Source of the DNA: a virus
Virus record (IMG/VR): IMGVR_UViG_3300042526_000097
Coordinates: 25,419-89,418 of that record
Direction: 5' to 3' (one strand)
DNA: 64,000 bases
Positions 51,778 through 57,961 of the stretch are shown here, in pieces (position 1 is the first letter of the stretch; every line of letters begins with the position of its first letter). Made by a program: the position numbers and the translations under genes. The notes beneath the pieces were generated by a model. That model ran no database searches and had not been told where the DNA came from. It worked only from the letters and a program-made list of their open reading frames with translations.

Positions 51778-52294
51778 TTGCTACCTCCCTTTTACCTGCT
51801 GTTGGCTGTACTAATTGAAAAACTATAGAACCATTAGATACCCCTAATGCTGGAGTGCCTTTAGTAAGATCTGCTTCTGCTTCCTGTTTAATGAACTTAA
51901 AGAGTAGAGCATACTTTTCAGAGTCTAACTTCTTAGCTCTTTTCTTGTTGTCAGTAAGATAAGATAGTAAGTGATTAGTTTCTGAGTAAATCATTTCATG
52001 GGATCCCTCTCCTGCTTTTACATAGTTCTTAAGAGCAATAGGTAAGATTTTAAGCTTATCTTTCTGTAGTTCTTTCATTACCCACTGCTGTGTTTGTGTG
52101 GGCAATAAAGGCACTAGCTTTCTCTGAAAGTCTAGGACTAGTTCTTTCATGTTGTGTTGTGTTTCTTCTGGTAACCCTATTACTGAGTCATGAAAAACCT
52201 GTCCCATGATGATGGCATTGCATATAGCCTCTTTGATCTGTTGGGTTACTAGTGAAGGGTTTTCTTCTGTACGGGTTATTACTTGTTGGGTCAT
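51767..52294 (-). CDS. hypothetical protein
   Basis: 175-aa coupled ORF. Confidence 0.6.
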   Translation of the reverse strand: MTQQVITRTEENPSLVTQQIKEAICNAIIMGQVFHDSVIGLPEETQHNMKELVLDFQRKLVPLLPTQTQQWVMKELQKDKLKILPIALKNYVKAGEGSHEMIYSETNHLLSYLTDNKKRAKKLDSEKYALLFKFIKQEAEADLTKGTPALGVSNGSIVFQLVQPTAGKREVANDD

Positions 52295-52665
52295 ATTATG
52301 TTTTGTTTTATGATATGTTTGAAAAGATAAGTTGCTTCTAAATCGTTTGTACTTAATAAATTTTTAAATGTAGCTATGCTATGTATGATTGTAGTATGGT
52401 CTCTACCTCCTAAGTCTTTACCTATTTGTGTCAATGATACTGTTTGGTAGTTAGCCTTTAGTATGAATGAGTAGGCTTGTCTTATGACAACTAAATTCCT
52501 AGACCTACGAGACCCATATATATGTTCTACTGTAACATTAGCTCTGTTGTATTCGTTACTAGCCTGTATTAAAGCCTCTAAAAGTTTAGACTTTACATTA
52601 GGTGGGAATGCTTCGTAATGCCTTAATCCTGGTATTGCAAGATAGTTTATTGCTATTTGGTCCAT
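52291..52665 (-). CDS. DnaA C-terminal (domain IV) HTH protein
   Basis: RSRNLVVIRQ...SLTQIGKDLGGRDHTTIIHS. Confidence 0.85.
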   Translation of the reverse strand: MDQIAINYLAIPGLRHYEAFPPNVKSKLLEALIQASNEYNRANVTVEHIYGSRRSRNLVVIRQAYSFILKANYQTVSLTQIGKDLGGRDHTTIIHSIATFKNLLSTNDLEATYLFKHIIKQNII

Positions 52666-54803
52666 ACGTCACTTATGTTTGTATCAGCCTTTAACAAGCC
52701 TGAGGGGATTATAATTTTAGCAGCCTCACACATTAAGTTATCAAACTCCACTTTCCACCACTCTGCTATGTCTTCTGTACAAGTAGTAGTTAGTTGGTCA
52801 TGGACATTTAATAGTAGATGTATCTTATCCTGTAAGTTGTTATCTCTAATATACTTATAGGTCTTCCACATAGCTAACTTAATGATGTCGGCTCCTGAAC
52901 CCTGAATTGGGTGATTTTTGCTTTGTCTCTCTATTCTACCTAGTGCAGTATTAAACTGTATACCTTTTAGGTGAGACTCTATTTCTGTTTTGTACATCTC
53001 CCAAGTTGGGAACCATCTCTTTCGAAAGATAGGACTTAAAGTTTGAGTGTAGCCATTCTGTACGCCAAACATACCAAAGGATTGTAAGGTCTTTTTAATT
53101 TGAGGAAATGTTTTAAAGTAGTCATCAATTAACTTCTCTGCTTCCTTAACAGAACATTTAAGTGTAGATGCCAGTTTATACTGTGACATACCGTAAGCCA
53201 GGCCAAAGTTAACAGACTTGATAGCTGTCCTGAATGTCTTATGTCCTTTACACTTACACTTATCTCTCTTAGTAACAAAGACACAGCCATCCTGAGTAGC
53301 ATCTGTCCATTTCTTTCCAAATACCATTGCAGCAGTTACACTGTGCAAGTCCTCTCCTCTTTCTATAGCCTTATACCATACATCATCTTGGGATGCAAAA
53401 GCTATAAGACATAACTCTTGGCCGGTATAGTCACTATCTACAAACTTCCAACCAGGTTCATAAATAAAACAGTTTCTATATCTATTACCTACTGCCTCAT
53501 ATCCTGGGATTTGTTGCATATTAGGTTTTAGAGATGAAGATCTGCCCGTACTTACTACTTGATTGTAATTAGTCCTTACTCTACCGTCAGGCTCAACAAA
53601 CTTCTCAATGAAAGCCTCACCAAAAGAAGACATAAGTTTCAAGGAGTCTTTATACTCTGATAGTCTTATGAATACCTCATGTGTAGCCTTAGATAGAGAC
53701 TCTTCGTCTAGTCCTTTGAGTTTAGGTTCTACACCCTGTAGTACATTTAATGCTTGTTGTTGAGAATTCCAGTTAATGTTTATAGTACCCTTAGGTAGTA
53801 CAAGTTCTCTAGATATCAACTCTTCATTGTGATGCTCTATTAGATAGTCTATCAATGGTTTGGTATCTTTCTCCTCTAGACTTGCAAGAATATACTGTTG
53901 CTCTGTGGGTAAATTAGGATGGTTTCTTATGTACTTTTTAATGACACCTAAGCTACCTCCCTCAATGTCAGGGAATACCATCTTTAAGAGCTCTGCTTTT
54001 TGTGTATGTGCATTGATATTAAAGTTAATAGTATCTTCTGTTTTGTAGTAGCTATGTGATACAGCCTTGTCTAATAATCTAACATCCTCTCGTATCCATT
54101 GGTCTAACTGTAGCTTAGCTTGGTTTACTATAGGTTCAGCAAGACTAACATTCTCCATCCACTTCTCATTATCTAACTTTACACCATGAAAGGTGCAGTC
54201 AGAAAAAGCTAAGAGACATCTCATCTCTAACCAAACAGCATTGCCTAAGTTCCAGTTGTCAATCTCAACCTTTTGAATGTCTCTTATCTTACCTAAATGG
54301 ACCACATCGTCTGCAGCATATTTAATCTTTTCAGGAGTTAAGTAACCATCTCCAAAACTAGTCTGTAAAGTCTTGTCTAGGTTTAGGTTACAATACTTCC
54401 AAGTAAGATCAGACAAAGAGTAGTTAGCATTCTCAATACCTCCATTGAGTATCTTCTCAGCAATCATAGTACAGTAGACATTGTGTATCTCTATATCATA
54501 GAACTTAAGAACTATATACTCAAAAGCAGCATTATGAATGAGTTTCAGTACTGACCAATCTTCTAGTATACTCTTAATGTAGTCTACTTGACCCGGAGAG
54601 AGCATACCAAATTCTAGTACATACTGTACATTACCTTCTACGTCACCAAACTGCATAGTCTTGCAACTCTTAGTACACCAAAAGGATGTAACATTAGTCT
54701 CAATATCAAACTGGACTTCTTTAAGGTCCTTAATCCAATCTTGAAACTCTTCCCAATTACCTGAGTATTGAGGCATGTCTGTACTTATTACCGTTTTAAT
54801 CAT
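52653..54803 (-). CDS. polA: DNA polymerase family A with 3'-5' exonuclease
   Basis: FDIET, HNAAFE, YAADD; TGRSSS..PNMQQIP, DYTGQEL, KSVNFGLAYG, NHPIQGSGAD, VHDQ. Confidence 0.95.
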   Translation of the reverse strand: MIKTVISTDMPQYSGNWEEFQDWIKDLKEVQFDIETNVTSFWCTKSCKTMQFGDVEGNVQYVLEFGMLSPGQVDYIKSILEDWSVLKLIHNAAFEYIVLKFYDIEIHNVYCTMIAEKILNGGIENANYSLSDLTWKYCNLNLDKTLQTSFGDGYLTPEKIKYAADDVVHLGKIRDIQKVEIDNWNLGNAVWLEMRCLLAFSDCTFHGVKLDNEKWMENVSLAEPIVNQAKLQLDQWIREDVRLLDKAVSHSYYKTEDTINFNINAHTQKAELLKMVFPDIEGGSLGVIKKYIRNHPNLPTEQQYILASLEEKDTKPLIDYLIEHHNEELISRELVLPKGTININWNSQQQALNVLQGVEPKLKGLDEESLSKATHEVFIRLSEYKDSLKLMSSFGEAFIEKFVEPDGRVRTNYNQVVSTGRSSSLKPNMQQIPGYEAVGNRYRNCFIYEPGWKFVDSDYTGQELCLIAFASQDDVWYKAIERGEDLHSVTAAMVFGKKWTDATQDGCVFVTKRDKCKCKGHKTFRTAIKSVNFGLAYGMSQYKLASTLKCSVKEAEKLIDDYFKTFPQIKKTLQSFGMFGVQNGYTQTLSPIFRKRWFPTWEMYKTEIESHLKGIQFNTALGRIERQSKNHPIQGSGADIIKLAMWKTYKYIRDNNLQDKIHLLLNVHDQLTTTCTEDIAEWWKVEFDNLMCEAAKIIIPSGLLKADTNISDVWTK

Positions 54804-55185
54804 ATCTTTTATCTATTAGTTTAGACTCATCTGACAACGTGCTATAAGAATAGACTTCTAACCCAAACTCATCTATGTAAATCTCATCCCCATTAACTAC
54901 TAGCTGAGCAACTTTAATATCCTCAAGATCGATTAAATTGTTTTCTAGCATCTTCTCATGTATTGGTGAAAAGACTAAAGAATGGTCTACAGTAGTTTTA
55001 ACTTGAAAGTTTAAGCTCTTTAAGTATCTTATCGTATCAGTCCTGCTCATGCCAAACGGTAGAATTAACTCAACCGGGGAAAGTTTAAGCTTTTCTTCTC
55101 CTATCGTATGAGGACTGTCTATGAGTACTCTTGGACCATTTTCTGACATGAAGAGTCTGTAGTCTTTTGTAAAGTCGAATCCCAT
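54796..55185 (-). CDS. hypothetical protein
   Basis: 129-aa ORF overlapping the ung 3' end. Confidence 0.5.
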   Translation of the reverse strand: MGFDFTKDYRLFMSENGPRVLIDSPHTIGEEKLKLSPVELILPFGMSRTDTIRYLKSLNFQVKTTVDHSLVFSPIHEKMLENNLIDLEDIKVAQLVVNGDEIYIDEFGLEVYSYSTLSDESKLIDKRYD

Positions 55186-55841
55186 ATTATAGGTTTTACA
55201 TTGTTTTTTAATAGGAATCTATTAGCCTTCACAAAATGGTTACTTTCAGTGAACTTATGTCTCCTATAGACTTCTGCCATAGGATGATAATTCTTTAGTA
55301 CCAATTTGGATCCCTTTATGTAAGGTCTTATGTAGGTGTTGTAAGTTTCTTCTGCACTATCTCCCCAAATCATAAAGACTATGGGTTGATTACTTTGTGC
55401 AAGAGCCTTTAATGTAGCCCCGGTGAACTGTTGCCACCCTAGACTGCTATGGGCCAAACTCTTTCCTTTTGTAGTAGTTAAGATAGTATTCAGTAAGAAC
55501 ACACCTTGTTTACTCCAATCAGATAAGTCCCCATTTGTTCTTTTAATAATAGATAACCCACTCTTAAGTAGTTCATTAAAGATGATATTAAGAGAACTAG
55601 ACACCTTACCCTCATTAGAAGAGAAAGCTAATCCACTGTCTCCCTCATCAGGGGAAGGGTCTAGTCCTAATATTACTACCTTAACATCCTCTAAGGGAGT
55701 CTCATATACTTTAAAGACTTCAGATAAGTGTGGACACAGTTCAGTAGAGATTGACCGTATCTTGTCATAAAGTACCTTAAAGTACTTCTTCTTTGTCTCT
55801 TTCTGTAGTACTGTGTACCATGTCTGTAGTTCTTTCTGCAT
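55119..55841 (-). CDS. ung: uracil-DNA glycosylase, family 1, variant motif
   Basis: VKVVILGLDPS, GLAFS, LSDWSKQGVFLLNT, GWQQFT, VFMIWG, HP, HFVKANRFL. Confidence 0.9.
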   Translation of the reverse strand: MQKELQTWYTVLQKETKKKYFKVLYDKIRSISTELCPHLSEVFKVYETPLEDVKVVILGLDPSPDEGDSGLAFSSNEGKVSSSLNIIFNELLKSGLSIIKRTNGDLSDWSKQGVFLLNTILTTTKGKSLAHSSLGWQQFTGATLKALAQSNQPIVFMIWGDSAEETYNTYIRPYIKGSKLVLKNYHPMAEVYRRHKFTESNHFVKANRFLLKNNVKPIIWDSTLQKTTDSSCQKMVQEYS

Positions 55842-56031
55842 CTGCTCTTTTGTTATGTACTGTTTCTAAAATTAATCCACCACTAATGTGTTTGTCACCT
55901 ATCCTAAGGTTATCAGTAATGGTAGAAACAGTTGCTCCGTCTAGCTGTTTGAGTACAGCCATATCTATCTCATCAGTTCCTGTTAGGACTAACTTAATAG
56001 TTCCATTCTTAATAATAGTTCCGTGTATCAT
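55777..56031 (-). CDS. hypothetical protein
   Basis: 84-aa ORF at the head of the operon. Confidence 0.55.
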   Translation of the reverse strand: MIHGTIIKNGTIKLVLTGTDEIDMAVLKQLDGATVSTITDNLRIGDKHISGGLILETVHNKRADAERTTDMVHSTTERDKEEVL

Positions 56032-57099: not shown

Positions 57100-57257
57100 G
57101 GTTTAAAAGTTTGTAGGTACTCAAGTAAGTACTTCGCATAGGAAGTCATCAACTCTGCACCCTTGTAAACAAAAAAGTCTTTCCCTTCTTTTACAGCCTT
57201 GTTATAGGCCTTTTGTAATGGCTTCAGGTCTTCCACTGTTATTACTGGTCTTGGCAT
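57096..57257 (-). CDS. 53-aa hypothetical protein (not in the ORF track)
   Basis: MPRPVITVEDLKPLQKAYNKAVKEGKDFFVYKGAELMTSYAKYLLEYLQTFKP; TAATG and ATGA overlaps with both neighbours. Confidence 0.7.
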   Translation of the reverse strand: MPRPVITVEDLKPLQKAYNKAVKEGKDFFVYKGAELMTSYAKYLLEYLQTFKP

Positions 57258-57961
57258 TAGTCTAAAAGTTTAAAGTGAACAAGCATTTTCTTGACTTCGT
57301 CCACTAGCTCCTCAATAGAACCTGAGTTGTTGAGTACATAGTCAAACTTGTGAGAGTCAAGAGCAGTTTCTGAAGAGTGTAATACTCTAGAGTGAAAAGA
57401 ACTCTTTCTATCTATTTGTATGCACAATCCTCCTTTGCTCTTGATAGCCTCATACTCGTTAGGAAATCTGAGGTCAGTGATGACCCAATTAGGATATATA
57501 TCCTTACTTACACTCTCACCTTTTTTCCATATACTAGAGTCAGAATCAAGTCCTAAGTTATACACTTCTGCAACAGGGTAGTAGCCAGCAAATAAAGCAT
57601 TAACCCAAGTGTTGGGATGTAGTCCATTTCTTATAGCCTCTGTTCCTAGCTTTTGTAGAAACAATCTATAAGTCATAGGTATAAAGGCACAAGCATCTTC
57701 TCCTTCATCTCCATCAAACTCTGTAATCTGTTTAAAGTAGGACCAAGATGAACTCATATAAGAGTCTTTGAACTTTTGATCTTCAAATTGTTCTGCTGGT
57801 ATGCCAGTAAGTAGAGAGGCTACATCTTTGAGTTTACCTGCAAACTTCTTGATTTTCCAGTCAGTTTGATTCTGTAGTAAATGTTGTATAATAATTCCTA
57901 CCGTGTCTTTGCCGGAACCTATTCTTCCTGAGATTCCTATCAGGTTTGGTTTCTTTGTCAT
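57257..57961 (-). CDS. deoxynucleoside monophosphate kinase
   Basis: IGISGRIGSGKDT, FAGKLK, LQKLGTE, ITDLRFPNE, HSSETALD. Confidence 0.9.
   Translation of the reverse strand: MTKKPNLIGISGRIGSGKDTVGIIIQHLLQNQTDWKIKKFAGKLKDVASLLTGIPAEQFEDQKFKDSYMSSSWSYFKQITEFDGDEGEDACAFIPMTYRLFLQKLGTEAIRNGLHPNTWVNALFAGYYPVAEVYNLGLDSDSSIWKKGESVSKDIYPNWVITDLRFPNEYEAIKSKGGLCIQIDRKSSFHSRVLHSSETALDSHKFDYVLNNSGSIEELVDEVKKMLVHFKLLD

Follow-up and report, generated by a model that had tools for sequence, protein, structure and literature searches.

The 64,000-nt stretch of viral DNA analysed here (the window) encodes, on its minus strand at 55119..55841, a 240-aa homologue of the family-1 UNG enzymes in which the tyrosine that guards the pocket is replaced by serine. 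The tyrosine gate is the textbook reason why UNG spares thymine, and cellular and viral enzymes of family 1 almost never lack it. The serine is fixed in the phage lineage that carries it, and the gene is clearly under purifying selection. As to its function, we put the chances at about even that the protein is a working UNG of the phage replication module with a pocket widened at the C5 position of the base, likely to act on 5-hmU and weakly on thymine.

Source of the UDG gene

The window covers the right-hand 64 kb of a virus record that is complete at 89,418 bp. The record ends are direct terminal repeats, CheckV completeness was 100% and the G+C content was 37%. The source is a freshwater phage, and it is identified as crAss-like by a 5,487-aa ORF, a PolA-based replication module and best phage matches to crAss-like phages of Bacteroides, Flavobacterium and Cellulophaga. 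The public sequencing runs with a matching stretch came from 23 studies, dated 2016-2025, of lake and freshwater metagenomes.

Family assignment and predicted fold

The UDG protein matched the Pfam UDG family at 2.4e-12, with 47.6 bits against a cut-off of 24.3, and chains of E. coli UNG matched its residues 5-224 at 1e-30 in a phmmer search of the PDB. The NCBIfam model NF003592 (ung equivalog), which has a cut-off of 162, was passed with 168.7 bits; for TIGR00628 the score was 166.3, short of the cut-off of 185.75. Judged by curated HMM cut-offs, membership of family 1 is therefore positive, if borderline. The AlphaFold2 model, built with 145 homologues as input, had a pLDDT of 93.8 and a pTM of 0.91. 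All of its top Foldseek matches were family-1 UNGs, with TM scores of 0.82-0.88 and an rmsd of about 2 A, and the predicted structure is the UNG alpha/beta fold.

Compared with E. coli Ung and human UNG, the phage protein was 33-35% identical. It shared the fold, the LLN strand, the HP with which motif B opens, and four active-site residues, Asp, Phe, Asn and His. It differed from them in having Ser for the Tyr gate, Leu for Gln, Pro for His67 and Glu for the Leu wedge, and its Pro-rich PPS loop reads SSS.

Active-site residues

Motif A, the water-activating loop, reads G59-L60-D61-P62-S63-P64 (GGA CTA GAC CCT TCC CCT) at 55650..55667 on the minus strand. An earlier, sequence-only reading had reported GLDPSP at this place, and both the ORF translation and the alignment with E. 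coli UNG bore out the motif and its exact coordinates. The alignment was ungapped through VKVVILG-x-DP-x. In E. coli numbering (62-GQDPYH-67, from PMC1936997), L60 corresponds to Q63, D61 to D64, S63 to Y66 and P64 to H67; S63 also corresponds to human Tyr147.

Four of the six canonical active-site residues were kept in the phage UDG, all of them invariant or nearly so in its relatives. These were the catalytic Asp61 (codon GAC, 55659-55661, minus strand; E. coli D64), the base-stacking Phe73 (55623..55625, minus strand; F77), Asn118 of the LLN motif (55488..55490, minus strand; N123), which was invariant in two alignments of relatives, and His186 of HPMAE (H187). The retention of the Asp, the Asn and the motif-B His, also claimed from the sequence earlier, thus held in the alignment. 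The remaining two, the Tyr gate and the Leu wedge, were lost. At the gate, E. coli Y66 is replaced by Ser63 (codon TCC, 55653-55655, minus strand). At the wedge, E. coli L191 of the HPSPLS loop is replaced by Glu190 of HPMAEVYRR, within the motif B/intercalation loop that aligned as H186-P-M-A-E190-V-Y192-R-R-H-K-F197 (55251..55286, minus strand). The Gln of GQDPY is absent as well, with Leu60 in its place, as throughout the clade.

The changes around the gate went beyond one residue. All seven residues that follow Asp-Pro differed from those of the sister lineages, SPDEGDS in the phage UDG vs YINGEAC, forming a remodelled, lineage-specific loop, S63-P-D-E-G-D-S69 (55635..55655, minus strand), where the sisters have Y-I-N/K/R-G-E-A-C. 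The Pro-rich loop has KVSSSL, not KVPPSL. In the AlphaFold2 model, confidence within the folded core was lowest (pLDDT 86) in a 10-residue block at the SPDEGDS loop. A frameshift origin of this loop was ruled out, since the alternative frames yield LPLMRETV or a stop. The earlier description of the active site was therefore correct in what it named, but it made no mention of the Glu190 wedge or of the remodelled loops. With the Tyr gate and the Leu wedge lost and two loops remodelled, the sequence leaves room for the view that activity could be low.

Fixation of Ser63 and selection on the gene

Among 234 aligned UDG domains from the closest 229 database proteins in two very large databases, 218 had Tyr in the gate column, as did 77 of the closest 80 IMG/VR loci. 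The 90%-identity cluster of the phage UDG comprises 14 proteins (JGI, ENA, Logan and NCBI). Motif A is covered by 13 of them, and Ser63 was present in all of these full-length variants (13/13). The Ser63 codon was unchanged in contigs of three independent lake or freshwater runs (X3, X4 and X6). A more distant strain, on a 62-kb contig of run X13, was about 97% identical, with 34 differences over 1301 nt. One of these was G>A at 55653, which changes TCC to TCT and retains Ser63.

The earlier reading had named a sequencing error at 55653-55664 as something that would undo its case. The probability of such a sequencing or assembly artefact is practically nil, and we regard it as refuted, because independent assemblies of several studies agree on the serine and because the X13 strain carries a synonymous variant in the serine codon itself.

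Compared with the X13 strain, the UDG ORF had 8 synonymous and 3 nonsynonymous differences over 151 and 569 sites (pN/pS about 0.10), and compared with X6 it had 4 synonymous and 3 nonsynonymous differences (pN/pS about 0.2); these counts are small, and 7 further differences were left out of the tally. The gene was clearly under purifying selection, from which we infer that the protein is expressed.

Relatives and ancestry of the serine gate

Outside the 90%-identity cluster, the nearest relatives were 50-56% identical to the phage UDG. Five of them (P0002 and P0004-P0007) read GLDPY and one (P0003, which is locus L001 on a 75-kb IMG/VR contig) reads GLDPH. In the conservation check proposed with the earlier reading, Ser was fixed in its own cluster and the sisters had Tyr or His. 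In the maximum-likelihood tree the Ser lineage was sister to P0004/P0005, both with Tyr, on a long stem branch of 0.7 substitutions per site, within a well-supported clade (99/96) whose basal members also have Tyr. Because the Ser lineage is nested in a clade with Tyr sisters and Tyr basal members, Tyr is the ancestral state on this tree, and Ser (TAC>TCC, one step) and His arose independently. The Ser substitution was confined to one species-level lineage, whereas Tyr is retained by sisters whose genomes are organised in the same way.

Other features were common to the whole clade. Throughout, Leu replaces the Gln and Glu the wedge Leu, and the motif-B pattern was HP[AMV]AE[VIL]YGR, in which the Glu190, Tyr192 and Arg194 positions were invariant. 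No relatives were obtained in a single-protein locus search of viral contigs with the UDG or with P0091. One metagenome-contig scan, which was swamped by the generic pattern QGV[FL]LLNT, gave only relatives of at most 42% identity and none between 56% and 98%.

Within the clade there is also a diverged subclade (P0084, P0090-92, P0154, P0166 and locus L163:4914-5561 on the plus strand) whose motif A reads DDEPS, ETSPY, GEEPQ, DSHPY, GEEPF, GIEPP or GEEPS. These proteins have another residue in place of the catalytic Asp but retain the LLN Asn, the His-Pro and the HPxxE.YG[KR] loop. The L163 UDG, which reads GEEPS, is encoded directly upstream of a PolA related to that of the window.

Since Ser, His and the diverged GEEP/GIEP/DDEP forms share one clade, motif A is unusually labile in the phage UDG clade. 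The existence of Asp-less members (GEEP, GIEP, DDEP, ETSP, DSHP) suggests that selection may preserve a non-hydrolytic role. This bears on a different account of the protein, in which it is mainly a non-catalytic component of the replisome, or one for which catalysis is secondary, acting through DNA or uracil binding or polymerase association, and in which Ser63 is neutral drift. We consider this account possible, though on the unlikely side. The tyrosine position has changed at least three times in the one clade (99/96), to Ser, to His and in the subclade variants, and the subclade lost the catalytic Asp while keeping the Asn, the His-Pro and the HPxxE.YG[KR] loop. Against it, the window UDG retains Asp, Asn, His and Phe at the end of a stem of 0.7 substitutions per site.

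Comparison with characterised enzymes

The sequence-only reading had stated that changes at human Tyr147 confer thymine-excising activity, and the published data agree. The human UNG mutants Y147A/C/G/S excise thymine at a detectable but low level, with an editing efficiency of 0.4% for Y147A (PMC11289083). Y147A has weak, Ugi-sensitive TDG activity and degrades normal genomic DNA in vitro (PMC2853124), and the Y85A mutant of Deinococcus UNG excises thymine about 5-fold above human Y147A. In E. coli UNG, Y66H lost activity about 170-fold, which bears on the sister lineage with His. The phage UDG resembles the gate mutants hUNG Y147A/C/G/S and DrUNG Y85A in having a small residue at the Ser63 position. 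However, these are single laboratory substitutions in a canonical background, whereas the phage serine is natural, fixed and selected, and in the phage UDG, unlike in them, the loop next to it is rebuilt and the wedge loop differs as well.

In the literature searched, every characterised family-1 UNG retains the Tyr, and the only characterised natural Tyr-less enzyme found belongs to another family. This is BdiUng (Blr0248) of Bradyrhizobium diazoefficiens, with natural GQDPA, which excises U, 5-hmU and xanthine (PMC5449639). BdiUng does not excise thymine from G:T, its A59Y mutation narrows the range towards U, and its insensitivity to Ugi is attributed to the lack of a Leu wedge (PMC5449639). 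It is like the phage UDG in being a natural UDG without the Tyr, but it has a family-4-like fold, an extended protrusion in place of motif B, no Phe stack and low identity to family 1, whereas the phage UDG is homologous to family 1 proper and keeps both Phe73 and a motif B of the HP type. Membership of the BdiUng type was considered for the phage protein and rejected on account of Phe73, the HP motif B and best matches that were all family-1 UNGs.

The vaccinia enzyme D4 reads GIDPYP in motif A and HPAARDR in the wedge loop, with Arg for Leu, and is active, uracil-specific and Ugi-resistant (PMC1936997). Its activity indicates that Leu60, Pro64 and a non-Leu wedge need not abolish catalysis. 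Poxvirus D4, likewise a viral UNG of family 1, resembles the phage UDG in that Gln is replaced by a hydrophobic residue and His by Pro, and in its non-Leu wedge loop, which starts with HPAA. It is linked to the viral polymerase. It differs in that it keeps the Tyr and is strictly specific for uracil.

Gene neighbourhood and synteny with PolA

The UDG gene lies in a block of genes on the minus strand. Immediately upstream is a conserved 84-aa ORF (55777..56031) that overlaps the UDG start by 65 nt, and downstream are a conserved 129-aa ORF (54796..55185) and the gene for a family-A DNA polymerase of 716 aa with a 3'-5' exonuclease domain (PolA, 52653..54803; Pfam DNA_pol_A 5.3e-67, DNA_pol_A_exo1 1e-16). 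The order 84-aa ORF, UDG, 129-aa ORF, PolA was common to the window and to L001, with identities of 50%, 50%, 47% and 65%, respectively, between the syntenic products. We place the UDG of this conserved block in the replication module. The earlier reading had the UDG just upstream of polA. The order was indeed conserved, but the two genes are not adjacent, since the 129-aa ORF stands between them. The role of polymerase cofactor suggested with that reading was neither borne out nor contradicted.

The 129-aa ORF is acidic (pI 4.7) and had no Pfam, PHROG or NCBIfam match. Besides the L001 ORF it had four database homologues at 63-97% identity, and its homologues occurred only in related phages. 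The AlphaFold2 model was poor, with a pLDDT of 53.6. The product is a candidate that could serve as an adaptor or regulator of the UDG.

UDG was found directly upstream of a related PolA in L001/L162, L163-L168, L217 and L219. This synteny, which includes the GEEPS-bearing L163, favours the replisome account introduced above, as do the precedents of viral UNGs that serve as structural parts of the replisome, namely poxvirus D4 (PMC1936997) and the gamma-herpesvirus UNGs (PMC5934625), and of UDG fused to phage PolA in the SP-15/YerA41 type (PMC13697223). However, D4 and the herpesvirus UNGs are active enzymes, so a structural role does not predict loss of the gate. Moreover, none of the 80 loci with a more distant PolA (35-46% identity; L082-L161, which represent other PolA groups) had a UDG within 4 kb of it. 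The parallels with the precedents are also partial. The polymerase link of D4 runs via A20, and no counterpart of A20 was detectable in the window phage. The SP-15/YerA41 proteins likewise tie a phage UDG functionally to an A-family replicative polymerase, but they are fusions and occur in phages with hypermodified thymidine, whereas the window UDG is a separate gene in a phage without T-modification genes.

The nearest relative of the window phage was represented by an 87,280-bp Logan contig, with a PolA (P0251) 82% identical and a 129-aa ORF (P0388) 77% identical to those of the window. In a search of 5.8 billion proteins no UDG of 57-97% identity was found; the phage of the 87,280-bp contig may have no UDG or a more divergent one. 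If so, the gene may be dispensable, and together with the loss of two canonical residues this would fit an inactive relic, a decaying gene without function. We hold that to be very improbable, as the ORF was intact in every strain, pN/pS was about 0.1, the AlphaFold2 model was confident and the catalytic Asp, the Asn, the His and the Phe were all kept.

Two other small genes were noted inside the replication module. One (58769-59197, plus strand) encodes a Dps/starvation-inducible DNA-binding-like protein (phrog_858, 2e-12), and the other (52291-52665, minus strand) a small protein that carries the C-terminal HTH domain of DnaA (PF08299, 3.9e-14). At 59437-60282 on the minus strand there is a homologue of the spore-photoproduct-lyase family (Pfam SPL 2.1e-12). 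It scored 171.7 bits with TIGR03886, far under the cut-off of 437, and has a C-x3-C-x4-C cysteine cluster vs the usual radical-SAM C-x3-C-x2-C.

Nucleotide metabolism and DNA modification

A dNMP kinase (57257..57961, minus strand; Pfam DNMK 1.9e-12, phrog_139 2e-41) was the only enzyme of nucleotide metabolism found in the complete 89,418-bp genome. Six-frame searches of the complete genome gave no ThyX, no member of the ThyA/dUMP-hydroxymethylase family, no dUTPase and no RNR large subunit, and no AP endonuclease of the Xth or Nfo type. The remaining ORFs, scanned with Pfam and PHROG, yielded no base-modifying enzyme. With no RNR, ThyA or ThyX, the phage must obtain its deoxynucleotides from the host, and with no dUTPase the incorporation of uracil is a plausible problem for it. 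Its gene content gave no sign of a T-modified genome. As no replacement of T was seen, a strong thymine glycosylase would be expected to strike the phage's own DNA.

These results bear on the proposal of an enzyme dedicated to the excision of thymine or of 5-substituted uracils, such as 5-hmU or hypermodified T, and directed against host DNA, for dNMP salvage, or against co-infecting T-modified phages. The pocket without a gate, read together with the data for the mutants and BdiUng, speaks for it, and so does the rebuilding of the whole acidic loop after Asp-Pro (SPDEGDS) rather than of one residue. The dNMP kinase, in a genome that lacks RNR, ThyA and ThyX and depends on host deoxynucleotides, would also be in keeping with salvage. 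We nevertheless regard the proposal as unlikely. The genome has no route to a protective non-T base and encodes no AP endonuclease or lyase that would convert abasic sites to breaks. Tyr-less UNGs excise thymine weakly (0.4% editing for Y147A), and BdiUng not at all at G:T. Finally, the Ser occurs only in one species-level lineage, with Tyr in sisters of the same organisation. Nothing was found in favour of the use against host or competitor DNA that had been suggested from the sequence, there being no thymidylate synthase homologue, no dUTPase and no sign of a self-protecting T-modification. A related scenario, in which an UNG was naturally converted into a thymine/5-substituted-uracil glycosylase, is a slim prospect. 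Such an enzyme would fill T-containing host DNA with abasic sites for dNMP salvage, or destroy co-infecting phages that have 5-hmU-derived bases, while timing, compartment or the 129-aa ORF product as regulator would protect the phage's own DNA.

Proposed function of the phage UDG

From these observations we infer the activity, substrate range and biological role of the protein as follows. Catalytic competence is favoured by the full-length similarity to UNG, the confident UNG fold and the four kept residues. The UDG would flip pyrimidines into its pocket, where Asp61 would activate the water, Phe73 would stack on the base, Asn118 would read O4/N3 and His186 would stabilise O2. In this way the enzyme would clear uracil from the phage's DNA close to or at the replication fork, and the abasic sites would then be processed by the host AP endonuclease together with the phage FEN and PolA.

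A pocket that admits 5-substituted pyrimidines is a reasonable expectation, because a small gate residue relaxes specificity in human UNG, Deinococcus UNG and BdiUng. With Ser at the position that abuts C5, the pocket would no longer sterically exclude 5-substituents. Uracil would probably remain the best substrate; 5-hydroxymethyl-, 5-formyl- and 5-halo-uracil would be excised to a measurable extent, and thymine weakly at most. The relaxed specificity would be a tolerated or mildly useful by-product and not a new primary function. The loss of two canonical residues, the Asp-less members of the clade, the missed TIGR00628 cut-off, and the presence of a His sister lineage when E. coli Y66H is weak count against this reading.

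The phage thus provides a natural, fixed and selected Tyr-to-Ser homologue of family 1, and sisters with Tyr or His in the same genomic setting offer a ready comparison. If the enzyme is active, it would show what degree of relaxed specificity a T-containing genome can survive in vivo, and it could be a naturally tuned starting point for deaminase-free editors of thymine bases, now based on Y147A/Y85A. If it is inactive, the clade would be a bacterial-virus parallel to the poxvirus and herpesvirus UNGs as part of the replisome.

Other UDG homologues without the Tyr gate

Tandem two-domain UDG-like proteins without the Tyr gate were also encountered. P0115, from the beetle Diabrotica virgifera, reads GQDPTS in both domains, and P0093, from ENA metagenomes, reads GQDPAP in both, while in P0081, from the moth Plodia interpunctella, the second domain reads GQDPGK. 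A further viral UDG homologue, with Leu for Gln and without the Tyr, was located on a 72-kb contig (L031:5911-6633, plus strand). Its motif is GLDPDCTPDVADG, in which the Ser/Thr-Pro-Asp step resembles the SPD of the window UDG, and its long branch lies in another region of the tree.
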